DNA of 61,388 bases, filler included. It is 3 parts of 3 records of this genome, joined end to end, with 100 filler letters (N's around TTAATTAATTAA, not from the genome) between each part and the next. Parts side by side here need not be neighbours in the genome. Positions count along the whole stretch, not along the records: positions 27,872 to 42,921 come from SRR22947725_115; 2 more parts are not named here. One strand, 5' to 3'. Both the position numbers and the translations under genes were made by a program. The stretch's first letter is position 1, and the number at the start of each line of letters is the position of its first letter. This document shows positions 27,310 through 49,324 of the stretch, in pieces. A model generated the notes under the pieces. That model searched no databases. It saw nothing but the letters and a program-made list of their open reading frames with translations, and was not told the origin of the DNA.

Positions 27310-27771
27310 TATTGTTTTGTAATCCAAAGCTCACCACAAGCTTTGGCAAGAGTTCTAATTCTGTTGATATAATTAGCTCTTTCAGTAACACTGATTACTC
27401 CTCTTGCGTCAAGAAGATTAAATAAATGACTTGCCTTTAAACACTGATCATAAGCGGGCAAACAAAGTTTTTTTTCTGCTAAATCTTTTGACTCTTTTTC
27501 AACCTTGTTAAACTGGTCAAACAAACTGTCAGTATTTGCGTACTCAAAGTTATAAGCAGAAAATTCTTTTTCAGATTGTAAAAAAACATCTCCATACTTA
27601 ACGCCTTCACTATTCCAGTCTATATCATAGACGTTGTTTTTATTTTGAATGTACATGCATATTCTTTCTAATCCATATGTTATTTCAGCAGAAACTGGTT
27701 TACATTCAAAGCCAGCCATTTGTTGGAAATAAGTAAACTGTGTAATTTCCATTCCATCACACCAAACTTCC
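27309..27771 (-). CDS. glyQ: Glycine--tRNA ligase alpha subunit, C-terminal part (5' end lost in gap)
   Basis: [36 protein letters not shown]; frame is open up to the N gap. Confidence 0.95.
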
Positions 27772-27871
27772 NNNNNNNNNNNNNNNNNNNNNNNNNNNNN
27801 NNNNNNNNNNNNNNNTTAATTAATTAANNNNNNNNNNNNNNNNNNNNNNNNNNNNNNNNNNNNNNNNNNNN
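27772..27871. other. Artificial contig-joining spacer
   Basis: N44-TTAATTAATTAA-N44, exactly 100 bp; the 12-mer has stops in all six frames; genes on both sides are truncated. Confidence 0.97.
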
Positions 27872-28577
27872 CATCCAATACATGTTGCCATGGTCTAGTT
27901 GAATTTGGACTTCTTATTATTGCCTTTCTTCCTTGTAGCCACGCTCTCATACAATCAGGTATTAATCTTTTTTCTGACCAATCACCTCCTCCAATTACAT
28001 TTCCTGCTCTTGCTACACCAATATAAATTTTATTATTTTTTTTTGAAAAATATGAACTTATATAACTTTTGATTGCTATTTCAGCTGCAGCTTTCGAAGC
28101 CCCGTAAGGATCTATGCCTCCAATAACATCATCTTCTTTATATCCCTTAATAGTTTCTATATTTTTATACACTTTATCGCTAGTGATTAAAACTACGACT
28201 GTTTCCCTCTTTACCTCTCTTAAAACTTCAAGAATATTTATTGTTCCAAAAGTATTTGAATACCAAGTAAGCGTAGGATCTAAATATGACCTTCCAACTA
28301 ATGATTGAGCTGCCAAATGAAAAATAAAATCAGGTTTAAGATGTACAATTTTTTTTCTTAATTTTTCTTTATTAATTAAGTCAAACATAATTGATTTTTT
28401 TATTCTTTTTCTTAAATTTATCTTATTAAAATGAGATGGTTTAGATGGTATGTCTTTTGATATTCCATGAACTTTTGCACCAAGCGATATTAAATAGGCA
28501 CTTAACCAGGATCCTTTGAAACCAGTATGTCCTGTTACTAAGATTTTTTTATTATTAAATATTTTTTTATAATTCAT
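27872..28577 (-). CDS. rfbG: CDP-glucose 4,6-dehydratase, N-terminal part
   Basis: TGHTGFKGSWL, HLAAQSLV, TSDKVY, DPYGASK, RAGNVIGGGDW, RPWQHVL; cut by the gap. Confidence 0.93.
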
Positions 28578-28601
28578 TTTTTAATCTATTATATTATATA
28601 T

Positions 28602-29396
28602 TTAGTAAAATAAGACTTTTTTATCATCTCTATCTGGATTGTTTGGAAAGTCTAAATTTTTTATTGGAAGGTGAATATCTTTTGCATTCTTCTTACAATA
28701 CTTTTTTTTTACAAATGTAAATTCAACAACAGAAGGGTAGCCCGAGATACTTACTGGCCCATAATTATTTACATGTATATGTGTGATATTTAATTTAAAT
28801 TCTTTAATAAATTTTTTTATTTTTTTAAAATTTTTCCTAATGCCATGAAATTCAATAACTAAACATTCAATTTTATTCCTATATTTAACTAGCTCATTTA
28901 ATATAGAATACTCATTTTCTTCTATATCAATTTTAAAAAAAATATTATTTAGATTATTATCTTCGATTACTCGAGTAATTGAAGAATATTTATTTAAGTT
29001 AATTTTTTTTGAGTTTTTAATTATATTTTTATTAATGAATTTTACATTTTTTCTTAAAATAAAAAAAGGAAAACTCACAAATTGAATTAAATTTAGAATT
29101 AACTTTTTAAAACTTAATTTTTTTTTTAAAAAATAATAAAAGGACTTAATCATATACTTAAGCCAAAAAATTAAATTAACACTTCCATCAAAAATAAATA
29201 CCTTTAATTTATTGTTTTTATTTAAAATTTCACTTTCAAACGACCAATCATCGTAAACACCTAAGCTGACTAAATTTTTTGAATTAATTAAAGCTTTTTG
29301 AGAAACGATATATCCTCCATCGAACTTTCTTCCGATTCTTATTTTTGTTGAGCTAAATTTTGGTTTAAATATTTTCGGAACTCTATAGTTTTTCAT
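28602..29396 (-). CDS. FkbM/Methyltransf_22-like SAM-dependent methyltransferase
   Basis: RIGRKFDGGY, SLG...DWSFE, KIDIE..EY, IEFH, HIHVNN. Confidence 0.65.
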   Translation of the reverse strand: MKNYRVPKIFKPKFSSTKIRIGRKFDGGYIVSQKALINSKNLVSLGVYDDWSFESEILNKNNKLKVFIFDGSVNLIFWLKYMIKSFYYFLKKKLSFKKLILNLIQFVSFPFFILRKNVKFINKNIIKNSKKINLNKYSSITRVIEDNNLNNIFFKIDIEENEYSILNELVKYRNKIECLVIEFHGIRKNFKKIKKFIKEFKLNITHIHVNNYGPVSISGYPSVVEFTFVKKKYCKKNAKDIHLPIKNLDFPNNPDRDDKKVLFY

Positions 29397-29412
29397 TAAA
29401 AATTAATTTAGA

Positions 29413-30192
29413 TTAAATAATTTTAGACATTGCGCCATCTATAACAATGCTTTGACCATTAATGTATCTTCCGTTGTCTGAAATCAAAAATTCAACTAAA
29501 GATGCTACTTCATCAGGCTCTCCAAATCTTCCTGCTGGAATATTTTTTAAAATATTTTTTCTTAATAAATTTTCATTAATTTTTGATTTTTTGGCATTAA
29601 TTTTAATTAATTTTTTTAATCTGTTAGTTTCAATACCCCCTAACAAAATAGAATTATTTGTAACATTAGACTTTGCAAGATCAAATGAAATTGATTTATT
29701 AAAAGCTAATACTGCAGCTCTTGATGTTGCTGATTGAACCATTGCTGAGGAAGGTTCTTTAGCAACTGTTGATGAGATAGTAATCATTCTTCCCCATTTA
29801 CTTTTAATCATTGATTTTGAAAATATAGTAGAGAGTTTTATTACACTAAGTAAGTTTCTATTTATTGTTTTTTCCCACATTTTGTCATTTGTACTTATAA
29901 AATTTGTTGGCTCAGGGCCTCCTGAATTGTTTATTAAAATATTTGGAAGTCCTAATTTCTTTTTGCAATAATCTAATAAATTAACGGAGAATTTTTTTTC
30001 CATATTATATGGAATCAATTCAACACGATTATTTGAATATTTTTTAATAATTTCTTTTTTAAGTTTTTTAAGTTTTTGTTTTGATCTTGATAACAAATAA
30101 ATACTAAATCTGTTTTTTGCAAAATTCATTGCAATAGCTTTTCCTACTCCATCACTTGCTCCAGTTATAAAGGCAATTTTTTCTTTTTTCAT
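29413..30192 (-). CDS. Atypical short-chain dehydrogenase/reductase
   Basis: TGASDGVG, NNSGGP, IPAGRFG; the YxxxK motif is replaced by SATSR. Confidence 0.85.
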   Translation of the reverse strand: MKKEKIAFITGASDGVGKAIAMNFAKNRFSIYLLSRSKQKLKKLKKEIIKKYSNNRVELIPYNMEKKFSVNLLDYCKKKLGLPNILINNSGGPEPTNFISTNDKMWEKTINRNLLSVIKLSTIFSKSMIKSKWGRMITISSTVAKEPSSAMVQSATSRAAVLAFNKSISFDLAKSNVTNNSILLGGIETNRLKKLIKINAKKSKINENLLRKNILKNIPAGRFGEPDEVASLVEFLISDNGRYINGQSIVIDGAMSKII

Positions 30193-30193
30193 A

Positions 30194-31267
30194 TTATGTT
30201 TTTATTTTTAGTTTACCAAAATTACTTAGACTTTGGTAAGGAATAATTTTATTATAAATTTTTGAAGGTTTTAAAAATTTTTTTTCATTAAAATATATTT
30301 TAATGATGTTATCAATGAGTGGAAAGCCCGCCGCTTCTGCAACTACAAAACTTCCACTAGGTCTTGGATTTATTTCAAGTATTTTGAATTTATTTTTATT
30401 ATCAATCATTAAATCACAATCATGTAAAAAATTTAAATTAAAAATTTTACTCAATTTTTTTGCCAGTAAATTTAATTTTTTATTATTAACAATAATATGT
30501 CCACTATTTGGCAATGCTGAATGCATTCTTCTCCTGCAAACTGAACTTATTAAAGAACCGTTTTTTGATAAAATATCTAAATCGTAAACAGGTGTTTTTA
30601 ATTTTTCCATCATTAATAAAGGGTACTTTTTCTTTAAAAAATTTTTATAGTTTTTTTTAAAATCTTTTAAATTTAAATGTTTTTCTCTACTATTCTGAAA
30701 ACTCGTAATTTTTTTTAACTTATTATTAATTACATAAACGTCTCTTCCACCTCTTGATATTGCCGGTTTAATACAAAAATCCAAACGCTTTCTCTCAAAA
30801 TTGTTAATTGCTTTCAATACCTCTCCCTCTTTTTTTATCTCAAACCAGTAAGGGAGTTCTATTTTATTTTTTTCTAATAATTTATAGGTTTCTATTTTAT
30901 TTGATATTTTAATTAAGTTTTTATAGTCGCTACAAGCTATTTTTACATGAGAATATTGATATTTTTTTGATAGCACTAAACTTTCTTCATCTGAAGTAAC
31001 TAGTATCAAATCAATCTTATTTTTTTTTACTATTTGATCAATTTTTTTTAAATATGAAGATTTGTATCCTTTTGGAACTTGATAGAATTTATCAAGAAAT
31101 TTTTTTGCTGCTAAATCATCACCTTTTTTAATATCGGTTCCAAAAATTTTTATTTTTTTTGTAATTTTATTTTCTCTAAATCTTAAAACAATTTCAGGAC
31201 CGTAATCTCCTCCCACACAAGTTATCAATATGTTTAAATTTAAAGATTTTTTTGTTTTTTTAGTCAT
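30194..31267 (-). CDS. ATP-grasp protein (CarB-like carboxylate-amine ligase)
   Basis: ILITCVGG, KPAISRGGR, LEINPRPSG. Confidence 0.8.
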   Translation of the reverse strand: MTKKTKKSLNLNILITCVGGDYGPEIVLRFRENKITKKIKIFGTDIKKGDDLAAKKFLDKFYQVPKGYKSSYLKKIDQIVKKNKIDLILVTSDEESLVLSKKYQYSHVKIACSDYKNLIKISNKIETYKLLEKNKIELPYWFEIKKEGEVLKAINNFERKRLDFCIKPAISRGGRDVYVINNKLKKITSFQNSREKHLNLKDFKKNYKNFLKKKYPLLMMEKLKTPVYDLDILSKNGSLISSVCRRRMHSALPNSGHIIVNNKKLNLLAKKLSKIFNLNFLHDCDLMIDNKNKFKILEINPRPSGSFVVAEAAGFPLIDNIIKIYFNEKKFLKPSKIYNKIIPYQSLSNFGKLKIKT

Positions 31268-33315
31268 TAATTTAACCTTCCAAAAGGTACCCGGCTTACT
31301 TCACTTTTTAAAAATTCAGAAGAGTTTATTTTATTTTTTTGAAAATATCTTATTTCTTTAAAAACTTTATCAAGAATTTTTCTATACTTAATTAAAGATT
31401 TTGTATCATGTGCATAGCTTGGATAAAAACTCGTTGTAGCTAAAATATTATGTTTTAAAAACTCCTGAGTCAAAAAAGTTTTAAATTCATCATTTCTTTC
31501 TAAAAATGTAAATTTTGCTAATGTAGGTATCCCAAAAACTTTAATATTTACTTTATTCTTTTTAGCTGTTGTTTTCCAAATATTCATCATTGCTTTACCA
31601 ATAGAATTTACTTTTTTCCATGGCTTAATTTTTTCCATCAATTCAATAGTTTTCATACCTGCACTTGGCCCTATTCTTTCAGTCCAAAATGTGCTGCTGA
31701 TAAAACTTTTCGATGAATTATTCATTAATTCTTTTTTTCCCAAAACTGCAGTTATCGCATAACCATTTCCAAGTGTTTTTCCCAAAATCAATATGTCGGG
31801 ATAAACTTTTATTTTCTTATGCATTCCACCTAAACATTCTCTAAAACCAGTTGTACACTCATCAAATATTAAGATTATTTTATTTTTTATGCATAGATTT
31901 TTAACTTTTTTCAGAAATGCTATATTTGGTTTAGAGCTTCTGCAGACCTCCATTTTTATAATTCCAATATTTTTTTTATAGATTAATTTTTTTAAACTTT
32001 TAATATCACCATAATTAAAGGGAAACGATGTATCTTTAAGTTTTTTTGAAACACCCAGAGGTGTCAGGCCTTTTAATAAATGTTTATCTAAATTTTTTTT
32101 ACTTTTTAAATTTGCAGCTAAATACCAATCATGCCACCCATGATATCCGCAAATAGCAACGTTTTGTTTTTTGGTATTAGATCTTGCTACTCTTATCGCT
32201 ATAGAATTAGCTTCACCTCCAGTTCTAGCAAATTTTACTTTTCCAAACCATGGATGAAGTTCTAAAAGTTTTTCAGATAAGCTTACTTCTTCAGGACAGT
32301 TTAGAGTACTTAGATTTCCTTTTTTAATTGTCTCAATAACAGCATTGTCAATTTGCTTAATGGAATAACCTAATAAATTTGTTCCTACCCCCATAGTACA
32401 CATATCTAAAAATTTTCTTTGGTTAAGATCCCAAACATAGGCCCCTTTAGTTTTTGAAAAATAAGTTGGCCAAAGATTAGGCAATATCATTTTATGATTT
32501 TTCGACAAAAGCATATTTTCACCCATTATGTTTTCTTTTGCTTTATTTATATAAATTAAATTTTTTGATTTTTTTGAATCATTTTTTTTTAAAAATTGAA
32601 TTATTTCTTTAAAACTAAAATAAATATTTGGATAAAAATTTTCAAATATTTCTTTTATTTTTTTAAAATCTTTAGATGTATCAACTGATAATTTGAGGTT
32701 TTTAGTATTTGGATACGGCGACTCAGGAATACACAATTTTAATTTCCTTAAAAAATCTATTTTTTTTTTCTTTAAATAAGGGGTAATAACTCCACCCTCT
32801 ACTCTGCTTTTTAAAGGTATTTTTTTTTCAATTTTTTCTAATAAATCAAAACTAAATATTTCAATATCAAAACCATCTGGGTAATAAGATTTTTTATTTT
32901 TTACAAATCTATTGTCTATAAGATGGTAAGTATTACATAGATAAGAACTTTTTTTCTTTTTGTAAATTTTTATAAAATTATCTATTAAGTTAGCGTCAAC
33001 TAAAGCACAGTCTGATGTAATTCTTATAATAGTCTTTGTTTTATATTTTTTTGCTGCATTATAAAATCTGTTAAGAGTGTCGTTCTCTTTGCCTCTAAAA
33101 GTTAAAATCTTATTTTTTTTTGCAATTTTAATTAAAATATCATTTTCTTTTTTTTTAGATGTAGCCAGTATAATGTTATCAATTAATCTGCTTTTTTGAA
33201 TTCTTTTTATTACGATTTCAATTAAGCTAAGATTATTTTTTGTAAGCTTTAGTAAATTTTTTCCTGGCAATCTCTTGGAGCCCATTCTTGACTGAATTAT
33301 AACATTAATGGACAT
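31267..33315 (-). CDS. Fusion: SpsF-type cytidylyltransferase + class III (GSA-like) PLP aminotransferase
   Basis: N-terminal IQSRMGSKRLPGK, RITSDC, YPDGFDIE, LSVDT; C-terminal FARTGGEA, GYHGWHDW, FDECTTGFR, GKTLGNGY. Confidence 0.9.
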   Translation of the reverse strand: MSINVIIQSRMGSKRLPGKNLLKLTKNNLSLIEIVIKRIQKSRLIDNIILATSKKKENDILIKIAKKNKILTFRGKENDTLNRFYNAAKKYKTKTIIRITSDCALVDANLIDNFIKIYKKKKSSYLCNTYHLIDNRFVKNKKSYYPDGFDIEIFSFDLLEKIEKKIPLKSRVEGGVITPYLKKKKIDFLRKLKLCIPESPYPNTKNLKLSVDTSKDFKKIKEIFENFYPNIYFSFKEIIQFLKKNDSKKSKNLIYINKAKENIMGENMLLSKNHKMILPNLWPTYFSKTKGAYVWDLNQRKFLDMCTMGVGTNLLGYSIKQIDNAVIETIKKGNLSTLNCPEEVSLSEKLLELHPWFGKVKFARTGGEANSIAIRVARSNTKKQNVAICGYHGWHDWYLAANLKSKKNLDKHLLKGLTPLGVSKKLKDTSFPFNYGDIKSLKKLIYKKNIGIIKMEVCRSSKPNIAFLKKVKNLCIKNKIILIFDECTTGFRECLGGMHKKIKVYPDILILGKTLGNGYAITAVLGKKELMNNSSKSFISSTFWTERIGPSAGMKTIELMEKIKPWKKVNSIGKAMMNIWKTTAKKNKVNIKVFGIPTLAKFTFLERNDEFKTFLTQEFLKHNILATTSFYPSYAHDTKSLIKYRKILDKVFKEIRYFQKNKINSSEFLKSEVSRVPFGRLN

Positions 33316-33671
33316 TATATTTTTCTCTTATTTTGATCTTCAATAACTTCAGAAGTTTTAGATAGCACATATGAATTCCAAACATTGCCATTATGTATTT
33401 TTTTATTTTTTATATCCCGATGATTATAAATTTCTCCATTGAAACTTAAATAATGATTTTTATTTTTTGAAAATGGTAGTTTTATTTTTTCATTAGGAGA
33501 GACTATTGCTAGTCTATTATTTGCTAAACCACAATTTTGTTTATTGCTTATATATATTCCGTTTTGATCAGGGCCTCTATGTGATATTTCTTTTAAAATT
33601 TTCTTAAGTTTAAATTCTAAATCATTTATTTTTGTTCCATCTAAACTGTAAATACCTGCTACTTCACACAT
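33315..33671 (-). pseudogene. Collapsed AsnB-type amidotransferase remnant
   Basis: Only 118 aa: MCEVAG, HRGPD, RLAIV, FNGEIYNH, then an unrelated short tail; no synthetase domain. Confidence 0.75.
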
Positions 33672-33695
33672 AATTTTTTGATTTTCTAAAATATT

Positions 33696-34382
33696 TTAGT
33701 CTATATTTCTTAATAGTTGAAATGCTTCTGCGAATTTAAGACCGACAGACTGCCCTCTGTACATTGCTAAGGTCTTTACACCCTTTTCTGATCTTGGGTG
33801 TGGCCAATTAAAAACTTCTTTTTTATAACATTTAATTGATTTTATTTTATGATTTATTGTTTTTGTGACATCTACAAAATAGTTAGGATTAAATATTTTT
33901 TTTTTATTTGAAAATCTCCATTCTGTGCTTGATAGTGTTTCGAATAAAAGTATTTTTTTAACTATCTCGTTAGGTTTAGGTCTAGTAGCGGTCACAACTG
34001 CTCTATTAATTATTTGATGATCATAGTTTAGATCGTTTTCAAAATGTGTCAAAATTAATTCAGGTTTAATTTTTTTAATAAATTGTTCAATTTTTTTAAC
34101 AATTTCTAACAGTGGTATTGTATCCAATTTATTATCTGGAAATGAGTGATAATAACACTTTTTAATACCCATTATTTTTGCTGCATTTTCTGAATGTTTT
34201 TTTCTTTCTCTTATTTTTTTTGCATCATTTACACTATTAGTTCGTGCTAAAACACCATCTGTGAAATATACAGCAAATATTTTGTTTTTTTTATTTGCAA
34301 GTTTTCTAATAGTGCCTCCGCAACCAAAAGCATCGTCATCTGGATGTGCTGCTACCACAAGTATATTTTTATTTCTTGTCAT
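33696..34382 (-). CDS. PIG-L/LmbE-family N-deacetylase
   Basis: AAHPDDD.FGCGG, DLNYDH, ETLSSTEW, PHPRS, AEAF. Confidence 0.88.
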   Translation of the reverse strand: MTRNKNILVVAAHPDDDAFGCGGTIRKLANKKNKIFAVYFTDGVLARTNSVNDAKKIRERKKHSENAAKIMGIKKCYYHSFPDNKLDTIPLLEIVKKIEQFIKKIKPELILTHFENDLNYDHQIINRAVVTATRPKPNEIVKKILLFETLSSTEWRFSNKKKIFNPNYFVDVTKTINHKIKSIKCYKKEVFNWPHPRSEKGVKTLAMYRGQSVGLKFAEAFQLLRNID

Positions 34383-34408
34383 TTAAGTATCTTCAGAATT
34401 AAATAAAG

Positions 34409-34885
34409 TTAATTAGATTTATATACCATATAAATATAATTTTTACTATTAGCAACATGTCCAAATAATTTTTTTTGATATTTTGTTTCAAAAAAATTAT
34501 TTTTTTTTAAACATATTACAGAACCAATATTTTTGTTTTTTACTCTAGCAATAATTTTTAATTTTTTTTTATTAAATCTTTTTAATGCTTGATAAAGTAA
34601 TAATGTCCCTCTGTTATTTCCAAAAAATTTAATTTTTAATGCTAATGAAATTTCAAAAATTTTTTTATTTACTTCTGAAAAACGAACATAACCTATTTTT
34701 CTATTTTTATAATTTGCAATGTATATTATAGATTTTTTTTCTTTCAAAAAACTTTTTAAGAACCATTTTTTATGCTCTAAAAATGATATCTTTTTTTTTT
34801 TATAGAATAAATTTTTTGATATATAAAAATTATATAAATTAAATATAAATCTAATATCTTTTAAAGTTGCATTACGAATAATCAT
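34409..34885 (-). CDS. GNAT acyltransferase (PseH-like)
   Basis: ISFLEHKKWF, IGYVRF, FEISLA, KNIGS; sits in the nonulosonate cluster. Confidence 0.7.
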   Translation of the reverse strand: MIIRNATLKDIRFIFNLYNFYISKNLFYKKKKISFLEHKKWFLKSFLKEKKSIIYIANYKNRKIGYVRFSEVNKKIFEISLALKIKFFGNNRGTLLLYQALKRFNKKKLKIIARVKNKNIGSVICLKKNNFFETKYQKKLFGHVANSKNYIYMVYKSN

Positions 34886-35736
34886 TAAGAATCAAATTTT
34901 AACCAATGTATAGGGTCTATTAATTCTTTTCTATCTATTTTAAATTTAGGTAATTTAATATACTTAAAATCATTTTTTAAAATTTCCTTAAGTTGTTCCA
35001 TGCTGTTAACCCCGATAACTATTTTATCTGGATTAGCGCTAAGTGCATGATTAAGGCAAACTGAAATTTTTTTCATTCCAGTATCACGTAAGCTTTTTTC
35101 AATTTCTGTCCAATTTTTTTTAAGTTTTTTGAGTTCTTTCGGTAATTGTTTTTTGCTTTTAAGTAATAAACCTTGCAAAAATATTGATCTAAGATGTATT
35201 TCAATTTTTTTTCCGTTTATAATTTTTTTTGTTTTATTTAAAATATTTAAATTTAAAATGTTATATGGCAGTTGTATGTAATCAAAGTTATATCTATTTA
35301 AGATGTAAGATAATTTTTTAGTGCTGTATATTGAGATTCCTATTTTTTTTATTTTTCTAATTTTTTTTAATTCTAATAAATACCTCATTATTTTTAAGCC
35401 TTTAAGGCTTAAAAGATTTTCAGGTTTTCTTAACGTAACTGCATAACATTTTCTTGAAATTTTATCATTAAAAAGATAACGATTTATTTTTTCTTTTAAA
35501 CTTCCTGTGTCGAAAAAATTATCACTTAAGTCAATTTTTTTATAAAGATTAAAATTTTTAAAAATAGTTCTCTTTATTTTATAATCATCGGCTGTATCTA
35601 AGTAATTAATTTTATTTTTTTTCGCAAATTTTAATAAATATTTAATTTTATTTGAGGAGATTTTATTATTTAACAAGCCATATTGTTTCTCAAAATTTGC
35701 AGTTCCAATAATTATTTTATTCATTAAATTCTTCAA
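34885..35736 (-). CDS. Aldo/keto reductase
   Basis: IGTANF...YG, LDTADDY, KIGISIY, QLPYNI, RSIFLQGLLL. Confidence 0.82.
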   Translation of the reverse strand: MKNLMNKIIIGTANFEKQYGLLNNKISSNKIKYLLKFAKKNKINYLDTADDYKIKRTIFKNFNLYKKIDLSDNFFDTGSLKEKINRYLFNDKISRKCYAVTLRKPENLLSLKGLKIMRYLLELKKIRKIKKIGISIYSTKKLSYILNRYNFDYIQLPYNILNLNILNKTKKIINGKKIEIHLRSIFLQGLLLKSKKQLPKELKKLKKNWTEIEKSLRDTGMKKISVCLNHALSANPDKIVIGVNSMEQLKEILKNDFKYIKLPKFKIDRKELIDPIHWLKFDS

Positions 35737-36743
35737 ACTATAAATTTCTTATTTATTACGCTGTCTGGTTTAATTGTTTTTTTTACTTTTTTTCCTATCA
35801 TTCTAAAAAAATATTTTGGTTCCATTCTTGGTCCTGGTGAATTCACCCTTTTTATTGAAATATTCTTTTTTGATAACTTTTCTCCCTTTTTAATCTCTAT
35901 TCTCGAAACAATCGTCCTTTGAAAATATTTTTTAGTTTTCAATTCTTCTTTAGTAGGAAATCCATATTTATTACCTAGTGATGCTTCAGTTAGTCTTATC
36001 TTTTGAACCATATTCTTAAATTCTTTTGGCATTAAAGAAATTTTGTGATCAGCTCCTGTATCTTTATTATTTAGGGTAAAGTGTTTTTCAATTATCTTGG
36101 CTCCAATACTAACTGCAACTATACAACCTAAATCTCCTAATGAATGATCGGAAAATCCTATCGGAATATTTCTAAATTTTTTCTTTAACGTAAAAATCCC
36201 AGATAAATTGAGTTTAGAAATTTCAGCGGGATAAATTGATGTGCACTTTAATATTGAAAATTTATTATGATATTTTTTAACTACATCTACTGCTTGTTTT
36301 ATCTCTAAAAGATTTGAAAAACCTGACGATAATATAAGAGGAATTTTCAATGACGCTGCTTCAGAAATTAAAGGGTGATTAGTCAGCAGCCCAGAAGATA
36401 TTTTTATTGCGGGAAATTTCAATTTTTTAACAATTTCTAAACTAGAAAAATCTCCTGGTGTTGCAAAAAGTATAATTTTTAACTTTTTTGCATATGCTTT
36501 TATCTTTTTTATTTCATCATATGTAAGATGGTTTTTTTTAAAAATTTTGTAAGATTTTGTATTTTTAGCATAACTCTCGTCTGGGTTAATTATTTGCAAT
36601 TTTACAGCATCGGCACCAGAATCTTTTGCTTTTTTAATTAATTTCTTACAATGAGATAAAACTCCATTATGGTTAACGCCAATTTCCGCAATTACAAATA
36701 CTCTTTTTTTGCCTACTATTTTATTGCCTATTTTAAAATTCAT
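35733..36743 (-). CDS. Nonulosonic acid synthase (NeuB/PseI family) with SAF domain
   Basis: IAEIGVNHNG, GADAVKLQ, CTSIYP, GFSDHSLG, IEKHFTL, DHKISL. Confidence 0.93.
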   Translation of the reverse strand: MNFKIGNKIVGKKRVFVIAEIGVNHNGVLSHCKKLIKKAKDSGADAVKLQIINPDESYAKNTKSYKIFKKNHLTYDEIKKIKAYAKKLKIILFATPGDFSSLEIVKKLKFPAIKISSGLLTNHPLISEAASLKIPLILSSGFSNLLEIKQAVDVVKKYHNKFSILKCTSIYPAEISKLNLSGIFTLKKKFRNIPIGFSDHSLGDLGCIVAVSIGAKIIEKHFTLNNKDTGADHKISLMPKEFKNMVQKIRLTEASLGNKYGFPTKEELKTKKYFQRTIVSRIEIKKGEKLSKKNISIKRVNSPGPRMEPKYFFRMIGKKVKKTIKPDSVINKKFIV

Positions 36744-36747
36744 TATT

Positions 36748-37944
36748 TTATTTATTTATAAGGGAAAAATATTTATTGGCCATTATATTTGTATTAAATT
36801 TTTTATCAATTTCAGATTTTGCAAGATAAGCCTTTTTTATGAATTTTTTTCTATTAAGAGAAAAGTTTATAAGTTCTTTTTTCAACATAAATTCATTATT
36901 AACATTTATTAATGTTCCATTCTTGTGATTTAAAAATTCTTTTACAGCACCAACATCAGTGGCTATAACTGGGGTGCCGGCAACCATAGATTCTCCAATT
37001 GTTAAACCGAAACCTTCGTAATCTCTAGTTAGTGAAAGACACAAGTCAAAACTTGTTAAAATTTTTATACTTTCTAAATCAATAAAACCCGTGAAATAGA
37101 TATTTTTTATATTATTTTTTTTACATTTTGTTTTTAATTTTTTTACATAGCTATCCTCGCCGTCTCCGATAATATAAAAATTCATTTGTTTAATTTTTGA
37201 ATTATTATTGTTTTTTATAAGCATATTTACTAAATCCTCTTGGCCTTTATTTGGCGTAACTCTTGAAAGCATGCAAATATTAATTTTATTTTTTTTCTTT
37301 ATAATTTTTTGAAGGTAGTTTTTCTTTTTAATATCAGTTTTAGGTATACCATTATGGATTACAATTGGATTAAATTTATTTTTAAATACAAAATTACAAT
37401 TTTTCTTTAAGCTTTTTTTTGAAGCTCTTGAAACAGTTACAAACTTGGTTGAAAATTTTTTTATCAATGAATTTATAATACTATTTAAAAATTTAGTAAA
37501 AATTCTAGATTTTTCACATTTATGATGAATAACAATTATTTTTTTTTTTAGTCCTAAGATTTTAGCTGCTATTATGGATGCTTGTTCACTTCTTAAGTTC
37601 CCATAATTACCACATTGAGCTATTAACACATCAAAATTTCTACCTTTTAATCTTTTTATAAAGATGATTACAGAGATAATAAATAATATTGGTTTCAAGA
37701 AAAAGTAGATAGTTCGTAGTAACAAATTATCAAATTTTATTGTAAAAAATGAAAAGTATGTTTCTAGATTAATATCATTAAATTTCTTTAGTCTTCTTTT
37801 TAGATATTTCGAAGCCTCATTGTTATGATTTGTTAGAATGGTGATATTAAATTTCTTAAATTTTTTATTTGAAACTAAATTATACAAATAAGTATCTACA
37901 CCTCCAATTTTAAGAGAGTCCCATACAATAATTATATTTTTCAT
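36748..37944 (-). CDS. GT4 (GT-B) glycosyltransferase
   Basis: GGVDTY, IHNGI, KGQ, EGFGLTIGESM, PVIATDVG. Confidence 0.9.
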   Translation of the reverse strand: MKNIIIVWDSLKIGGVDTYLYNLVSNKKFKKFNITILTNHNNEASKYLKRRLKKFNDINLETYFSFFTIKFDNLLLRTIYFFLKPILFIISVIIFIKRLKGRNFDVLIAQCGNYGNLRSEQASIIAAKILGLKKKIIVIHHKCEKSRIFTKFLNSIINSLIKKFSTKFVTVSRASKKSLKKNCNFVFKNKFNPIVIHNGIPKTDIKKKNYLQKIIKKKNKINICMLSRVTPNKGQEDLVNMLIKNNNNSKIKQMNFYIIGDGEDSYVKKLKTKCKKNNIKNIYFTGFIDLESIKILTSFDLCLSLTRDYEGFGLTIGESMVAGTPVIATDVGAVKEFLNHKNGTLINVNNEFMLKKELINFSLNRKKFIKKAYLAKSEIDKKFNTNIMANKYFSLINK

Positions 37945-37953
37945 TTTATTAAA

Positions 37954-39714
37954 TTAATCCTTTATCCATGAACTTGGTAAATGATCAATAACGTTAAAAT
38001 AGCTCCTTAAGTAGTCAGTTCTTAAATTTTGTATATTTTTTTTCTCCCACCAACCATTAGGATTTGCCCAGATATTTTTAATATGTTCTTTTAATTTTGT
38101 CGTGTCATCGAATGACATTTTATTTTTTTTCATTTTAATAAGGAAATTTCTACTTCTTTTATCCAATAGAATTTCTTTTTCATTGCAAAATAATAAAGTT
38201 GGAATATTTAATGAAAGAGCTTCTGAAAAAGACGTTGAGGGGAAATTACAAATTATCAATTTAGAATGTTTTAAAACCTTTGCAAATGATTTACTTATTT
38301 CAAAATTCCTGCTATTTTTTTTTGAATTTAGAACAGTGTCATAAAATCTATTTTCTGACTCTAAACCGTAGTTTCGAAGAGGCCTAAAAACAGTTGTATC
38401 TCTAATTTCCCTTGGAAGTTTTTTAGAGACGTAGATTAAATTATTTAAAGCTTTATTTTGATTTTCAAAACTCTGTAAAGCATCATATTCAATTGTAAAT
38501 TTTCTACTTTCGTAAAATAGAATAGATAAATGATTTTTGATATCAATGTTTAAATTTAAATTTAAGCTAGATAGTGTTGGATTAATAAATATTTTTTTTT
38601 TTGAAGAAATATTTTTCCCGTGAGAATGTTTTCCCCAAACAGCAAAATTATCAAAAATTTTTTTTTGGATATATAAATGATTTGGTATATTTTGAAAACT
38701 AAAACCTCCGCCGTGATCACATTGAATTATTTTTGTTTTATTCCTTCTTGCCAAAACAAGAAATATTCTAAATATTTCATTATGATAAAATGAAATTGAT
38801 GTTATTATTTTTTTTTTTTTGGGATATTGATTTAGGTGTTTAATTATTTGATTAAAGTTTTCTAAATAATTTTTTGGTATATTATTTACTATTATATCAC
38901 TAATCATTTTTTCCAACTTTGAAAAGTTTGATCTTCTAATAGAACTTTTCAGACTATTTCTTTTGTTAAGATCTAAATTTGAACTGAAATTTAGTTGAAA
39001 AAGTTTAAAAACCTTATAAGGAAAAATTCCAAAACTTAAACAAATTTTAATAAATTCAAATTTTGGATAATATATAGACTCAAAAACTATTTTATTAAAT
39101 TTGTATGAAAATTTTGAAAGAGAAATTTGTAAATAATTTTTAAGTTTTGAGATTATAGTAAATTTTTCTTTTTTAATAATTATTTCATTGTCTTTAAACC
39201 TTTTTTTTTTAATTTCTATTTTAAGATTTTTGTTTCTTTTAAAAATATCTAGAATTAAAAAATTATTAAAGCCCTCTGTCTGAATGACTTTTAAAAAATC
39301 AATAGATGAATTACATAAAAATTTGTTCTCTTTTTCTAATATATCGTTTACAGCTATCTTTTTTATTTCATTCCTCAAAAGAAATTCATCAATCATAAAT
39401 TTCCTATCTAAAATCATATATGTAAAAGATTTAATAAATGGGTAAAGGATAATTTCGTATTCTTCTTTAGATAATTTTTTATAAAAATTGTTTGATAGTT
39501 TATTGTATAAAAATTTAATTATCTTAAGCGAAATAGTGTGAGATAGTCTATTTCTTTTAATTCTGTTTTTATTATTTTGAGCATTAAAAAAATTTTCAGT
39601 TTTAACATCATATTGTTTTTTTTTGAAATCTTTAGCCCAATAACAGAGATTCAAGTTTTTGTAATTTTGATAAAACTTATCTGAGGGTGTGACTCGAAGA
39701 AACACTTTCTTCAT
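37954..39714 (-). CDS. Putative transferase (LIC12162-family-like), candidate nonulosonate transferase
   Basis: HGGG, AVWG, STSFSEALSLNIPT, C-terminal W..P..WW pattern; position in the sugar cluster. Family call is from memory. Confidence 0.6.
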   Translation of the reverse strand: MKKVFLRVTPSDKFYQNYKNLNLCYWAKDFKKKQYDVKTENFFNAQNNKNRIKRNRLSHTISLKIIKFLYNKLSNNFYKKLSKEEYEIILYPFIKSFTYMILDRKFMIDEFLLRNEIKKIAVNDILEKENKFLCNSSIDFLKVIQTEGFNNFLILDIFKRNKNLKIEIKKKRFKDNEIIIKKEKFTIISKLKNYLQISLSKFSYKFNKIVFESIYYPKFEFIKICLSFGIFPYKVFKLFQLNFSSNLDLNKRNSLKSSIRRSNFSKLEKMISDIIVNNIPKNYLENFNQIIKHLNQYPKKKKIITSISFYHNEIFRIFLVLARRNKTKIIQCDHGGGFSFQNIPNHLYIQKKIFDNFAVWGKHSHGKNISSKKKIFINPTLSSLNLNLNIDIKNHLSILFYESRKFTIEYDALQSFENQNKALNNLIYVSKKLPREIRDTTVFRPLRNYGLESENRFYDTVLNSKKNSRNFEISKSFAKVLKHSKLIICNFPSTSFSEALSLNIPTLLFCNEKEILLDKRSRNFLIKMKKNKMSFDDTTKLKEHIKNIWANPNGWWEKKNIQNLRTDYLRSYFNVIDHLPSSWIKD

Positions 39715-39728
39715 TATAATTTTTTAAA

Positions 39729-40703
39729 TTAAATTAATTTTTTGATTTCTTCAACTGATAAAAACCTATTATCATTTGAAGAATAAATGAAACCTTGTTT
39801 TACAGATTTCCCTTTTTTAAATATTTTAAATTCATTTTTTTCATAAAGAGAATTATTTGGCAATATTACAAAGTGATCAATAAACTCATACGCATTAAAA
39901 GATTCATCTCCAGATATTAACAACTCGTTAATTTTTTCTCCTGGTCTAATTCCAATATTTTTCATTTTAGCTTGCGGATATACAGCTTTTATAAGTTTTG
40001 TTATTTTTATTGATGGCATTTTCGGAATAAATATTTCCCCCTTAATCATTCTTTCTAAGCATTTTAAAACGAATATAACAGCATCGTTTAACTTAACAAA
40101 AAATCTTGTCATTCTCTCGTCTGTAAGTGGAACTTCTTTAATATTTTCATTTTTTAAATTTCTAACCATTGGAACTATTGATCCCCTAGAATTAATTACA
40201 TTTCCGTATCTAACTACAGAAAATCTTGTACCAAGGCCTGACATTGCATTTGCATTAGTAAATATTTTTTCAGAGCATAGTTTAGTTGCTCCATAAAGAT
40301 TTATTGGATTTACTGCTTTGTCAGTTGATAAAGCTATTACTCTTTTAACGTTTGCATCTATCGATGCCTGAATAACATTATTTGATCCATCAATATTTGT
40401 TTTTATACATTCTAATGGATTGTATTCAGCAATTGGAACATGCTTTAACGCTGCGGCATGAATAACAAAATCGACATCTTTAAGTGCAAGTCTTAATCTG
40501 CTTTGATCTCTTACATCTCCAATAAGGAATCTTAATTTATTTGATTTAAATTTTTTTTGCATTGAATATTGTTTCATCTCATCTCTTGAATAAATTATTA
40601 TTTTTCTTAGTTTTGATTTTTGTATTAAATATTCTACACAAGCCTGTCCGAAAGAACCTGTTCCACCTGTAATTAAAATGTTTTTATTGTTTAAAAAATT
40701 CAT
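39729..40703 (-). CDS. pseB: UDP-GlcNAc 4,6-dehydratase (inverting)
   Basis: TGGTGSFG, SRDEMKQ, HAAALKHVP, STDKAVNPINLYGATK, RYGNV, MTRF, GIRPGEK. Confidence 0.93.
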   Translation of the reverse strand: MNFLNNKNILITGGTGSFGQACVEYLIQKSKLRKIIIYSRDEMKQYSMQKKFKSNKLRFLIGDVRDQSRLRLALKDVDFVIHAAALKHVPIAEYNPLECIKTNIDGSNNVIQASIDANVKRVIALSTDKAVNPINLYGATKLCSEKIFTNANAMSGLGTRFSVVRYGNVINSRGSIVPMVRNLKNENIKEVPLTDERMTRFFVKLNDAVIFVLKCLERMIKGEIFIPKMPSIKITKLIKAVYPQAKMKNIGIRPGEKINELLISGDESFNAYEFIDHFVILPNNSLYEKNEFKIFKKGKSVKQGFIYSSNDNRFLSVEEIKKLI

Positions 40704-42463
40704 TTTATTTCTGAAAAATTTCCGTTTTTAAGATCATAGCATTTATCGAAATTTTTAAATATTTCTTTGTTGTGTGAAACCCACAATACTGTAATTTTAT
40801 TTTTATTGCTAACTATATTCTCAACTATTTTGGACTCGTTAAAACTATCTAGTGAACTGGTTGATTCATCTAATACTAATATCTCAGGTTTGAAAAAAAT
40901 AGCTCTGCCTAAAGCAAGTCTTTGTTGCTGACCAGGTGATAATTTGAATCCTGAAGCACCTAAGATTGTATCTAAACCTTCATTCATATTGCTAACTAGA
41001 TCATCTAAGCCTACAATTTTTATTATTTCTCTCAAATAACCCATATCGCTCAATTCTTTACCAAAAGTAATATTATTTAGAAAACTATCATTTTTAATAA
41101 ATATTTCTTGGGGCACACAGGATGCAATTTTTTGCCAACTATTTTTACATCTTGATAAATTTTCACCATCAACAAAAATACTTCCTTTATTTGGCTCATA
41201 AAAACCTAAAAATAAGTCTAGAAAAGTTGATTTGCCTACCCCACTAATGCCTGAAATACCTATTTTTTGTCCTTTAATTACCTCTAAATTCAAATCTTTT
41301 AGGATAAAGTCACGTTGGTTTTTAGGATCAATTTTGTATGAAAAACTAACATTTTCAAATCTAATGCTTTTTTTTAAATTAAATTTTTTGGGATTTTCTT
41401 CATTATTATTCTCAACTAGATTTTTAAATTTTACAAAATCATTGTTTAACCTTGATGCGCTTGGAAAGTTAAATTGAATTCTTTGTAAACTTGAAACTGT
41501 TCTAGATAATGAAGGAATTAATCTATAGCTAGCAACTAGAAATATTCCTATTGTTGGAACAAAATCTGAAACATTGTTGGAATTAAGATTTGTATAGAAA
41601 ACAAACAAGAAAACTAAAACTACTATAAATAGCTCAAAAAATGGCTTACTTAACGAATTTCTAAAATTTGCAGTATAGTTTATTTTGCTAATTTGATTAT
41701 TATGAAATTCAAAATTATTTTTAATTGCATTGAAAGTCCCAAAAATTTTTATATCTTTAAATCCACTTAAGCCCTCAATAATTGACTCTACTCTTTTCTC
41801 TAAATGTGTACTTCGTCTTCCACCCAATTTTGAAATTTTTTTCTTATTAAATAAATTAAAAAGAATCCCAGCACTAAGGAATAAAAAAATAGCAATTATA
41901 GATATCTTAAAATTATAAACGAGTAAAAAAATTGAAATCCCTACAAGGAGTAGGACCTCCATAGTAATTACACAAAATGAGTAGACTGTTGAAATGAAAA
42001 AATCGACCTCATTTGTAATATTTTTAATCAGATCAGAAGTATTGGCTCTCATTTTAAATATTAAAGGCATTTTCATATAACCTGAAAAAAGCTTATTACT
42101 TACATTAGCTCTTAAGTTAGCTAAAAATTTATTTTCTTTTTTGCTTACAAAAATAATAAACAAACTCTTTATAAAAAATAATAAAGCAAAAAATAAAAGA
42201 ATTATTATTTCTTTATTAAAAAAAGGTTCAAGTAATCTGAATACGTGACTGTCAAAAAATTCATAGTCTGAATTTCTGCCCGAAAAAAAATTAAGAATAT
42301 TTAAAATATAGTTTAAAATGAGAATTTCTAATAACATTGATGTCATCATCAAAAAAAAGAGAATTATTGAGTTTATAAATTCTTTTTTTTCTAAAATATT
42401 TTTAAAGTAATTAAACTGATTTATTTTATTTTGAAAAAAATCCATAGCTCCGCACTTTGCCAA
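40700..42463 (-). CDS. ABC transporter, fused permease/ATPase (PglK/MsbA-like glycan flippase)
   Basis: N-terminal TM domain, GISGVGKST, VPQE, LSPGQQQR, LDESTSSLD; start may be 42445. Confidence 0.88.
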   Translation of the reverse strand: MAKCGAMDFFQNKINQFNYFKNILEKKEFINSIILFFLMMTSMLLEILILNYILNILNFFSGRNSDYEFFDSHVFRLLEPFFNKEIIILLFFALLFFIKSLFIIFVSKKENKFLANLRANVSNKLFSGYMKMPLIFKMRANTSDLIKNITNEVDFFISTVYSFCVITMEVLLLVGISIFLLVYNFKISIIAIFLFLSAGILFNLFNKKKISKLGGRRSTHLEKRVESIIEGLSGFKDIKIFGTFNAIKNNFEFHNNQISKINYTANFRNSLSKPFFELFIVVLVFLFVFYTNLNSNNVSDFVPTIGIFLVASYRLIPSLSRTVSSLQRIQFNFPSASRLNNDFVKFKNLVENNNEENPKKFNLKKSIRFENVSFSYKIDPKNQRDFILKDLNLEVIKGQKIGISGISGVGKSTFLDLFLGFYEPNKGSIFVDGENLSRCKNSWQKIASCVPQEIFIKNDSFLNNITFGKELSDMGYLREIIKIVGLDDLVSNMNEGLDTILGASGFKLSPGQQQRLALGRAIFFKPEILVLDESTSSLDSFNESKIVENIVSNKNKITVLWVSHNKEIFKNFDKCYDLKNGNFSEIK

Positions 42464-42494
42464 TTAGAAAATTGTCAATTTATGTTTCTTTTTT

Positions 42495-42921
42495 TTATAC
42501 AGACGTATAAAAATATTTGTCATTTTTAACTATTACTTTGATATTATTAACTAATATCCGTAAATCCGATTTTCCAATTTTTTTTATTTTGAAAAATAAA
42601 TTTTTTAAAGGTCCGGAAATAAATTGACCATCTTTTTTATAACAATCATTAAAAAAATTAGGTTTCAAAAAACCATCAAAATTTTCATATTTTTTACATT
42701 TACTTATAAATTCAGTAATTGAATTTTGAGATAAAATATTACCTTTCAAAATTTGTTCGAGCCCTTTTAAAAATTTCAACTTAATTAATTTACTTTCATC
42801 TTTAAAATCATGATGATTACAAAATAGGTATTTGCCTAATACAAATTGAATTTTTTTTTTATTATTTTTATCATCTATTTTAATTCTTGGAATATAAAAT
42901 TTAGCTGAAGAAAAATTTTTT
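42495..42921 (-). CDS. Hypothetical protein, C-terminal fragment
   Basis: Frame stays open from the gap (KIFSSAKFYIPRIK...) to the stop at 42495; no recognisable motif. Confidence 0.55.
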
Positions 42922-43021
42922 NNNNNNNNNNNNNNNNNNNNNNNNNNNNNNNNNNNNNNNNNNNNTTAATTAATTAANNNNNNNNNNNNNNNNNNNNNNN
43001 NNNNNNNNNNNNNNNNNNNNN
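42922..43021. other. Artificial contig-joining spacer
   Basis: Identical N44-TTAATTAATTAA-N44 linker. Confidence 0.97.
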
Positions 43022-43373
43022 TTCCAATATTACTTCCAAAAAATAAATTATCTCCAAGAATAAGGGTCACAGGCTTGTTATCAATAAATTTTTTTCCTAT
43101 TTTTATTGCTTGAGCTATTCCCTCAGCTTTTTTTTGTGTCTCATATTTAATATTTATGCCAAGATGGGATCCATTTTTTAACAATTTCTTTAATAAATCA
43201 ATATCTCCTGGATTTGAAATTATAAGTATTTCCCTAATACCAGCTAACATTAATGTTGATAGTGGATAATAAATCATAGGTTTATTGTAAATTGGTAAGA
43301 GCTGCTTTGTAATAGCAGAAGTTAAGGGCTTTAAACGCGTATTATTTCCACCAGCTAAAATAATACCTCTCAT
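43022..43373 (-). CDS. rmlA: Glucose-1-phosphate thymidylyltransferase, N-terminal part
   Basis: GIILAGG..TRL.PLT, KQLLPIYNKPMIYYPL, LILGDN; cut by the gap. Confidence 0.95.
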
Positions 43374-44383
43374 TATTTAACTTTAGTTAAGTTTTTTTTA
43401 TACCATAATACGGTATTAAATAACTCTTTGTTGAAATTTTTTTTTGGTTTCCATTTTAAGTCATTCATAATTTTATTTGCATTTACAGAATACTTGAAAT
43501 CATGCCCTAATCTATCTTTTACTTTTGTAATTAATTTTAGATAATCTATTTTTTTATTTAAGTTATTAGTTTTATTTAGTATTTGGCATATTGATTTTAT
43601 TATATAAATATTTTGTTTAACATTTTTTGATCCAATATTGTACGAATCTCCAATTTTTCCTTTTTTTGAAATTAAAACAAGCGCATCAACATGATCCTGC
43701 ACATGAATCCAATCTCTCATCTGTTTTCCATTTCCATAAACAGGTATTTTTTTTTTTCTAATAGCATTTATTATTGTTTTAGGAATTAACTTTTCACTAT
43801 TTTGAAAAGGACCATAATTATTTGAACAGTGAGTAATTAATACTGGCAAGTTATAAGTTTTATAAAATGACCTAACTAAATGATCAGAAGAAGCTTTTGA
43901 AGCTGCATAAGGTGAGTTTGGGAGAAAGGTGGAGTTTTCACTGAAAGATCTTGATCCTTTTTTTAAAGAGCCAAAGACCTCATCTGTTGATATCTGAATA
44001 AATTTAAATTTACTTCTATTATTTTTACTCATTGTTTGAAAATATTGATTAGATAATTCAAGAAGATTAAAAGTGCCAATTATATTTGTTTGAATAAATT
44101 TTTTTGAGTTAACTATTGATCTGTCTACATGGGATTCAGCAGCAAGATTAAAAATTATATTTGGTTTAAATTGGGAAATAACATTTTTAATTTTTTTTTG
44201 ATCACCTATATTAGCTTTTAAAAACATATAGTTGTGTTTGTCCTTAATACTATCAAGGGCATATTTATTGTGAGCATAGGTTAAATTATCTATATTCAAA
44301 ATTTGATTTTGTTTATATTTAATTAATGTTTTTATTAATGCCGATCCTATAAATCCTGAACCACCTGTTATCAAATATTTCAT
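43373..44383 (-). CDS. rmlB: dTDP-glucose 4,6-dehydratase
   Basis: TGGSGFIGS, AAESHVDRSI, ISTDEVFG, PNSPYAASK, CSNNYGP. Confidence 0.96.
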   Translation of the reverse strand: MKYLITGGSGFIGSALIKTLIKYKQNQILNIDNLTYAHNKYALDSIKDKHNYMFLKANIGDQKKIKNVISQFKPNIIFNLAAESHVDRSIVNSKKFIQTNIIGTFNLLELSNQYFQTMSKNNRSKFKFIQISTDEVFGSLKKGSRSFSENSTFLPNSPYAASKASSDHLVRSFYKTYNLPVLITHCSNNYGPFQNSEKLIPKTIINAIRKKKIPVYGNGKQMRDWIHVQDHVDALVLISKKGKIGDSYNIGSKNVKQNIYIIKSICQILNKTNNLNKKIDYLKLITKVKDRLGHDFKYSVNANKIMNDLKWKPKKNFNKELFNTVLWYKKNLTKVK

Positions 44384-44384
44384 T

Positions 44385-45254: not shown

Positions 45255-45444
45255 TAAATATTATATAGACTTAATATTTATCATGATAAATACATAAATA
45301 AGTAATTACTTAACTTAATACTATAATACTAATTTAATATTGAAAGTATTTTAGATCATTTTTCTCATTTTCAAAAAAATAAAATGCTTTCCTTAACTGT
45401 TATCTGAAGAAAAAGTTTAGTAAAAAAAAATTTATTAAAAAAAT

Positions 45445-46395: not shown

Positions 46396-46449
46396 TTTAT
46401 AATGCTAAAATAACATAATTTTATATCATTAAAGTAACAAGACTTTAAA

Positions 46450-46526: not shown

Positions 46527-46630
46527 ATAACTGTGTATTAATTTAAAGTAATAAGAAAATCAATTTGAAATATGTAAATTATAAAATTTACTATGAATGA
46601 GCTTATAAACAGGATAATTGATAATTTTTA

Positions 46631-48949: not shown

Positions 48950-48970
48950 AATCTGATTTTTTTAGATATA

Positions 48971-49306: not shown

Positions 49307-49324
49307 AGTTCTTTATAAAGCAAA

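Follow-up and report, generated by a model that had tools for sequence, protein, structure and literature searches.

What does a nonulosonic-acid (NulO) gene cluster produce when its cytidylyltransferase (CT) is fused to a class III aminotransferase (AT) and neither PseC nor PseG is found beside it? This question is raised by a stretch of 61,388 nucleotides, the whole of which was analysed and is called the window below, and which is made of three contigs, A (positions 1-27771), B (27872-42921) and C (43022-61388). Contig B, which is 15,050 bases long and broken off at both ends, carries the entire NulO finding in eleven open reading frames (ORFs) at 29413-40703, all on the minus strand and tightly packed; the other genes of contig B named below lie on the same strand. 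An earlier note on this DNA had described these eleven genes as a NulO cluster with extra tailoring genes, and Pfam and NCBIfam profile searches of the ORFs, with the model cut-offs given below for each gene, agree with the gene families and bear out this description. We hold with moderate confidence that the region is a single operon fragment of a pseudaminic-acid-type NulO surface-glycan locus, located in a variable region of SAR11 (Pelagibacteraceae) and running the pathway proposed below. Going by its gene families, this is a pse-type locus in a SAR11 version, with a widespread add-on.

The canonical CMP-pseudaminic acid pathway of Helicobacter and Campylobacter runs through PseB, PseC, PseH, PseG, PseI and PseF. 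The inverting UDP-GlcNAc 4,6-dehydratase PseB is encoded at 39729..40703 and matches TIGR03589 with 466.6 bits, above the cut-off of 407.75. A NeuB-family NulO synthase (35733..36743; PF03102, 232 bits) is followed by a divergent aldo-keto reductase (AKR) at 34885..35736, with a partial Aldo_ket_red match of 47.8 bits, and by a PseH-like GNAT N-acetyltransferase at 34409..34885 (Acetyltransf_1), which shares 30-33% identity with the GNAT part of PseG::GNAT fusions. The SpsF-type CT::AT fusion, a protein of 682 amino acids (aa) at 31267..33315, has CTP_transf_3 at residues 5-131 and Aminotran_3 at residues 285-594, the CT domain spanning residues ~1-255 and the AT domain residues ~257-682. AKR, CT and AT are referred to here as the trio.

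The synthase lies outside the named clades. It scores 257.1 bits on the PseI model TIGR03586 and 295.4 bits on the NeuB/LegI model TIGR03569, under the respective cut-offs of 340.25 and 399.65. The earlier note had suggested a NeuB phylogeny, and in a tree of 62 NeuB-family proteins from trio loci the synthases of the window, of L147 (one of two long syntenic contigs, L147 and L148, found in a metagenome scan with the ATP-grasp protein of the cluster as query) and of L025 (from the single-cell genome G002) form a clade of their own. Two other clades are distinct from it: a large PseG-linked one, with members at 485-514 bits on the PseI model, and that of a second cassette type described below. 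Since the synthase is about equally distant from the solved enzymes PseI (166.9 bits), Neisseria NeuB (157 bits) and Bacillus SpsE (153 bits), the stereochemistry of its product is not readable from sequence.

The trio is not confined to this lineage. Among 8000 scored candidates, 7566 are relatives of the CT::AT protein at E <= 0.001, and 119 of the 120 best-listed homologues contain both Pfam domains. A scan of one genome per species has revealed at least 575 stretches encoding such a relative, with hosts in Pelagibacteraceae, Prochlorococcus, Synechococcus, Leptospira, Chlorobium, Legionellaceae and Bacteroides, and in Methanobrevibacter CT and AT are two adjacent genes. All ORFs of 80 kept loci and of contig B were clustered, giving 81 sources, many of which are cut by contig ends, so that the family counts are lower bounds. 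The AKR adjoins the fusion in at least 68 of the 81 sources, and PseB is present in at least 59, the NeuB family in at least 57, the PseC cluster in at least 55, the PseG cluster in at least 36, PIG-L in at least 10, and the SDR and the LIC12162 family in at least 8 each. The cluster representatives score 577.6 bits for PseC (cut-off 423.5) and 302.3 bits for PseG (cut-off 153.55). The common gene order is PseB, PseC, (GNAT), AKR, CT::AT, PseG or PseG::GNAT, PseI, and hence the trio normally sits within a complete pse cluster. The earlier note had called the module non-standard; in the sense of rare this does not hold, and the co-occurrence analysis shows a common add-on to complete pse clusters, which is also annotated in Aeromonas and Legionella. 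The window trio, too, lies in a pse-type cluster, with the genes for GNAT and PIG-L and a remnant of asnB intervening between AKR and CT::AT. That the trio is a unit is also supported by further fusions of its parts, CT::AKR of 566 aa in L082 (3337-5037) and AKR::GNAT of 496 aa in L035 (3834-5324). The CT::AT fusion of the window groups in the tree with Pelagibacteraceae sequences, and its closest homologue among 401 Pelagibacteraceae species genomes, with 88% identity, is that of G529. A homologue of the fusion or of its AT domain at E <= 1e-60 is present in 62 of these 401 genomes and in 33 of the 174 high-quality ones. The clade and the G529 match speak for a SAR11 origin of the cluster.

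That neither PseC nor PseG lies in the contig had served the earlier note as a premise. The sequence bears this out only in part. No homologue of either was found anywhere in the 61-kb window with 66 PseC-cluster and 36 PseG-cluster queries; these gave one chance match of 33.5 bits, and the PseG::GNAT fusions among them matched the GNAT gene. However, since contig B is short and cut at both ends, the absence carries little weight, and the nearest relatives do not support the premise. In G529, contig C1 (157 kb) starts within the cluster and contains AKR through SDR, with a full asnB and without a 415-aa gene discussed below, and contig C13 (7.6 kb) carries seven cluster genes on a single strand. 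These are, in order, a PseG-like C-terminal fragment (21.8 bits; the cut-off of the PseG model TIGR03590 is 153.55), PseC (TIGR03588, 453.7 bits against a cut-off of 423.5), a 109-aa ORF (orf109), an ABC exporter, PseB, a LIC12162-like protein and a NulO synthase, the last four being 49%, 62%, 31% and 62% identical to their window counterparts. Contig B stops one gene before the ABC exporter, past a small gene called orf94, where G529 has PseC. L025, whose synthase is the next-closest to that of the window with 58% identity, has PseC (469.4 bits) adjoining PseB, and a PseG-like::GNAT gene follows its SDR. PseG is represented in the two nearest relatives by weak matches only (G002, 86 bits; G529, 21.8 bits; cut-off 153.55). 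In the tree of the fusions, the sequences of loci without PseC do not form a PseC-replacing clade but are spread among those of loci that have it. Because PseC occupies the syntenic place in G529 and is present in L025, and because the fusion tree shows this scatter, the lack of PseC in the window is most likely an assembly gap.

These gene assignments lead to a plausible pathway. UDP-GlcNAc would be dehydrated by PseB, C4 would be aminated by an off-contig PseC and the new amine acetylated by the GNAT protein. A divergent PseG-like hydrolase would then free the hexose, which the non-PseI synthase would condense with phosphoenolpyruvate, and the CT domain would form the CMP-sugar. The CT domain matches PF02348, and PseF (TIGR03584) is not among the 25 best of the 73 NCBIfam families matched by the fusion; the stand-alone form of the domain (c8) matches KdsB models only, at E <= 1e-8. 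Since PseF is above its cut-off in none of five whole trio genomes, where the weak matches include the fusion itself at ~27-28 bits, the SpsF-type CT domain is the sole candidate NulO cytidylyltransferase there and is likely to be the CMP-sugar synthetase. AKR and the fused AT would rework one secondary carbon of the nine-carbon sugar, most likely C8, by oxidation to a keto group followed by transamination or re-reduction.

Several features bear on this last step. The PLP (pyridoxal phosphate) lysine (ILGK), the aspartate of FDEC and the CT motif are kept in at least 90% of 64 fusions, and the AT domain looks active because its PLP lysine and aspartate are conserved. The AKR retains DTAxxY and a conserved Lys. 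The best matches of the AT domain in the PDB are aminating enzymes, a C-6' aminotransferase and glutamate-1-semialdehyde aminomutase, at ~1e-26, and its relatives there include 6'-epimerases and racemases of the same fold. Class III aminotransferases accept methyl ketones. C8 is favoured because an 8-keto-9-deoxy sugar is a methyl ketone suited to such enzymes, because the best solved relatives of the AT domain are aminating enzymes, and because the sole tested enzyme that combines CT and AKR, EpaA of Acinetobacter baumannii, acts at C8. It is a tentative suggestion, possible rather than probable, that AKR and AT, acting on the CMP-bound or free pse-type sugar, replace the hydroxyl at C8 by an amine by way of an 8-keto intermediate, or move the amine of C7 to C8, to give an 8-amino nonulosonic acid that in this lineage would be decorated by the PIG-L, ATP-grasp and methyltransferase proteins. 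An 8-amino nonulosonic acid was not found as a sugar class in the literature searched, and a search for 'triamino' nonulosonic acids returned nothing. The product could be new, and the window adds no decisive evidence for that.

The tailoring and export genes would complete the pathway. The PIG-L family N-deacetylase (33696..34382; PF02585, 98.1 bits) and the ATP-grasp ligase (30194..31267; ATPgrasp_Ter, 55.9 bits, and PylC-like_N) may swap an N-acetyl group for another acyl or aminoacyl group, and such deacetylation and re-acylation is plausible from the two protein families. The ATP-grasp ligase is 96% and 95% identical to the copies in L147 and L148, respectively, and 30% identical to an ORF of L025. 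A 264-aa protein (28602..29396) has no Pfam match, and an ESM Atlas feature score of 0.98 to FkbM/Methyltransf_21 clusters suggests, as a lead only, that it is probably an FkbM-type methyltransferase, which may methylate the sugar. A LIC12162-family protein of 586 aa (37954..39714; TIGR04331, 186 bits, under the cut-off of 225) is a candidate NulO transferase, and together with a GT4 glycosyltransferase (36748..37944; Glycos_transf_1, 78.8 bits) and an ABC exporter it would put the sugar on a lipid-linked surface glycan. The exporter (40700..42463; ABC_tran and ABC_membrane), a PglK/MsbA-like protein with permease and ATPase fused, scores 256.4 bits on the PglK model, under the cut-off of 1000, and is probably the flippase for the lipid-linked glycan. 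The SDR-fold protein (29413..30192; adh_short, 129.7 bits) has S...R at the position of the catalytic YxxxK, as has the 93%-identical copy in L147, and so it is indeed atypical, as the earlier note had said, and not a normal dehydrogenase.

The locus varies between alleles. The AsnB-like amidotransferase remnant at 33315..33671, which is 118 aa long and had likewise been recognized as a remnant before, arose by an in-frame internal deletion: residues 1-86 and ~612-643 are kept in frame and joined within an A-rich stretch, and the intact protein of L147, L148 and G529 has 643 aa. A 2878-base contig of run X2, which is another sample of the study from which the window probably derives, bridges both the asnB deletion joint and the joint between GNAT and PIG-L with 0 differences, and the latter joint is also bridged by contigs from two other studies. 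The listed contigs of X5, X7 and X9, which belong to three other studies, end or become unlike the window at 33397-33411, the behaviour expected of a full-length allele; this shows only that other asnB alleles exist. In L147 and L148 a 415-aa gene with a weak match to Lactamase_B_3 (metallo-beta-lactamase fold) lies between GNAT and PIG-L (4057-5304 in each); both the window and G529 lack it, which makes it an optional extra in the tailoring set. Over the stretch that reaches from CT::AT to rfbG, the window shares 97% DNA identity with L148 and 90-93% with L147, whereas the part containing LIC, GT4, NeuB, AKR and PIG-L is only 77-85% identical to either, indicating that the locus is a mosaic. 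A recombination breakpoint is seen near PIG-L/asnB (window 33411-27872 versus 38435-35150, against L147 and L148). The window sequence recurs in 19 runs of 8 studies.

Several points weigh against the proposed reading. PseC and PseG were not found in this organism's window and are known only from relatives, and the upstream half of the cluster is 49-62% identical at the protein level to that of G529 (31% for the LIC-like protein), so that the synteny may fail. The AKR lacks the conserved His at the usual catalytic position, and the SDR lacks YxxxK. The site and direction of the AKR/AT chemistry are inferred, and the likeness to EpaA and its partner EpaB rests on domain make-up, not on alignment; the window SDR is only 19% identical to the SDR that adjoins a CT::AKR gene in L159, a locus laid out like EpaA/EpaB. 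Among 25 complete type-1 loci, GNAT-like genes number one in 14, two in 8, three in 1 and none in 2, and 5 of 7 PseC-less type-2 loci have none, these counts coming from an imperfect seed search that missed the GNAT half of L025. Finally, the asnB deletion may mean that this copy of the cluster is decaying. The GNAT counts indicate that trio loci do not carry a regular extra acyltransferase for the supposed new amine, and the idea of an extra amine is somewhat disfavoured by this.

The same lack suits an alternative in which AKR and the CT domain together epimerise C8 in the manner of EpaA, yielding an 8-epi-pseudaminic-type product with no new amine. The fused AT would then have another task; for instance, it might use PLP to epimerise a carbon that bears an amine, or it might prepare an N-acyl donor. 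EpaA (CTP_transf_3::Aldo_ket_red, 542 aa) and EpaB (SDR, 262 aa) of A. baumannii, which are prophage-borne, convert Pse5Ac7Ac to 8-epi-Pse5Ac7Ac (8ePse5Ac7Ac), as shown by nuclear magnetic resonance (NMR) of the capsule (PMC12053666). By its domains, EpaA/EpaB is the closest tested relative of the CT and AKR part of the trio (PMC12053666), which speaks against the earlier note's reading; in its favour, no characterised pathway accounting for the pair of AKR and class III AT was found in the literature searched. The arrangement of EpaA/EpaB recurs in L159 (787-2418), where a 543-aa CT::AKR ORF is followed by a 275-aa SDR; L159 comes from 1 of 301 Moraxellaceae-family genomes searched, 13 of which gave any match. 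Its CT::AKR protein is 25% identical to the window AKR (E 2e-17) and 23% identical to the window CT (E 3e-18). A protein search of a phage collection with the CT::AKR protein, as a route to epaA, gave no match. The occurrence of epimerases and racemases among the structural relatives of the AT domain also speaks for the epimerase. However, EpaA acts together with an SDR partner, and an SDR is nearby in only 8 of the 81 trio sources, while that of the window has no YxxxK and does not qualify as a functional partner of the EpaB/AciE type. Moreover, the PLP lysine and the long, strongly conserved core of the AT domain argue for a dedicated catalytic role tied to the CT domain, and the best structural matches of the AT domain are aminating enzymes. 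This alternative is rather unlikely. Plain C8 epimerisation, or a shift of the amine from C7 to C8, nevertheless fits the data about as well as a third amine.

It is improbable, though in line with the earlier note's premise, that the lineage makes its NulO without PseC and PseG, with the class III AT supplying the amine. Such a route gains from a second cassette type, found in nine loci (L036, L038, L046, L055, L065, L072, L079, L084 and L090), which consists of PseB, AKR, CT::AT, an RmlD-like reductase, a distinct NeuB-like synthase and a small GT2 protein and in which PseC and PseG are both missing. Three genomes that carry this second cassette were searched whole, namely a complete chromosome of Synechococcus, that of Neptuniibacter MED92 and one from SAR116, and none has a PseG match or a PseC match above its cut-off. 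The second cassette looks like a separate, undescribed NulO route. Neither PseC nor PseG was found in the 15 kb of contig B, nor in the 7 kb downstream of rfbG in L148, where an RfbF-like nucleotidyltransferase, an epimerase, a DUF2334 deacetylase, a GT2 protein and a methyltransferase are encoded. Against this, PseC is above its cut-off inside the cluster in the two nearest relatives, and the end of contig B coincides with the position of PseC in G529. Replacement of PseC by the AT was considered and is disfavoured by PseC in these relatives and by the scattered fusion tree, and so a role of the AT as a PseC substitute is unlikely in this lineage.

That the window carries a decaying copy of the cluster and that the finished sugar is not made, which the internal asnB deletion, the SDR without its catalytic Tyr or Lys and the missing 415-aa gene of L147 and L148 would suit, is also given little credence, since the remaining ORFs are all intact and tightly packed, L147 retains the same SDR variant, the 415-aa gene is optional and absent from G529 as well, and the sequence recurs across so many runs and studies.

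The remaining features of the window concern the ends of the cluster and the origin of the contigs. Contig B is bounded by two artificial joints at 27772..27871 (left) and 42922..43021 (right), each of which consists of N44 + TTAATTAATTAA + N44 and has no strand. On one side the contig is cut within rfbG, on the other at a distance of 142 bases from orf94, upstream of that gene. Of rfbG (CDP-glucose 4,6-dehydratase), the 5' part is present at 27872..28577 and matches TIGR02622 with 332.9 bits over profile positions 1-233 of 352; the gene is complete in L147 and L148. The genes glyQ (27309-27752), rfbG (to 28577) and rmlA (from 43373 down) are half genes because the contig ends cut them. The first gene of the contig, orf94 (42495..42779), encodes a small protein with no Pfam or NCBIfam match that is 37% identical to a 179-aa ORF directly upstream of PseB in L025. 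The right end of contig B is also covered by public contigs of two runs, one of 2690 bases from X7 and one of 3324 bases from X9, which extend 1.0-1.2 kb past 42921.

Contig A is 99% identical over 7.8 kb to G001, the nearest genome compared, and its GlyS is 82-84% identical to that of HIMB114-type Pelagibacteraceae. In contrast, the core genes of contig C, namely the suf operon, mnmA and a class A penicillin-binding protein (PBP1A), share only 66-72% DNA identity with G001 and G529 alike. Since contig A is nearly identical to G001 while these core genes are distant from it, the window assembly probably mixes SAR11 lineages, and therefore contigs A and C do not tell which organism contig B comes from. 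A homologue of the fusion is lacking in G001 (best match 42.8 bits), as is a PseC above the cut-off (149.3 bits), and this genome was set aside as an uninformative guide to the cluster; none of 15 genomes of its genus has a homologue of the fusion or its AT domain at E <= 1e-60. Contig C starts with rmlA (cut), rmlB and rmlD, followed by an FkbM methyltransferase, a Wzy_C O-antigen ligase/polymerase-like protein and a WecA-like initiating transferase, and the part of the window at 43022-48949 is a second surface-glycan region that adjoins core genes.

Many bacteria carry nonulosonic acids in their surface coat, where these sugars influence how phages and hosts recognise the cell. SAR11 ranks with the most abundant organisms of the ocean, and the variable surface-glycan regions of its genomes are thought to be relevant to phage escape. 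Because the trio is common across phyla, one in vitro assay would annotate hundreds of clusters; if an 8-amino sugar is indeed its product, that sugar would be widespread, the trio being present in SAR11, Prochlorococcus, Synechococcus, Leptospira, Legionellaceae, Bacteroides and methanogens. What the window itself adds is that the 'missing' pse genes are most likely an assembly artefact, and that a SAR11 variant exists with a synthase beyond the named clades and with allelic loss of asnB and of the 415-aa gene. The features special to this lineage are the synthase under both cut-offs, PIG-L, the ATP-grasp ligase, the SDR without YxxxK and the internal deletion of asnB.

Compared with the canonical pathway, the window shares a PseB above the cut-off, a PseH-like GNAT protein, a NeuB-family synthase and a cytidylyltransferase, and its relatives share PseC within the same operon. 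It differs in that the synthase is under the PseI cut-off and that the CT domain is of the SpsF type and fused to a class III AT; PseG is absent from or very divergent in this cluster type, and the window adds AKR, PIG-L, ATP-grasp, SDR-like and methyltransferase-like genes. KdnA and KdnB of Shewanella produce 8-amino-Kdo. They share with the trio the logic of a dehydrogenase and an aminotransferase that place an amine on an ulosonic acid, but their substrate has eight carbons and a primary alcohol, whereas a pse-type sugar is 9-deoxy and has secondary alcohols only.

No biochemical study of the trio was found in the literature search, although the supplementary tables of PMC7874193 and PMC12053666 may hold more. 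The group I flagellin islands of Aeromonas contain pseB, pseC, an aldo/keto reductase, pseF, a class III aminotransferase, pseG, (pseH) and pseI, with an optional deacetylase, and the extra genes carry no assigned function there (PMC7874193). They resemble the window in having the same trio within a pse cluster and an optional deacetylase, but in Aeromonas CT and AT are encoded separately, flagellin is what is glycosylated and the synthase bears the name pseI, and the window cluster adds glycosyltransferases and an ABC exporter. SAR11 is not known to have flagella. The 403-Da pse-like flagellin glycan of Aeromonas hydrophila AH-1 (PMC4691044) was considered, and since the presence of the trio in AH-1 is unconfirmed, its mass was not used. 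The O-antigen cluster of Legionella pneumophila Sg6/Sg12 encodes PseG, a 'glutamate-1-semialdehyde aminomutase', a cytidylyltransferase and an aryl-alcohol dehydrogenase (PMC3694923), and a Vibrio cluster encodes an SpsF-like::AKR bifunctional protein followed by a dehydrogenase (PMC7371886). EpaA/EpaB and the window have in common CTP_transf_3 and Aldo_ket_red domains, a pseudaminic-type sugar and an SDR-fold gene nearby; in the window, however, the AKR is a separate protein, the CT domain is fused to an aminotransferase instead, and the SDR lacks YxxxK.

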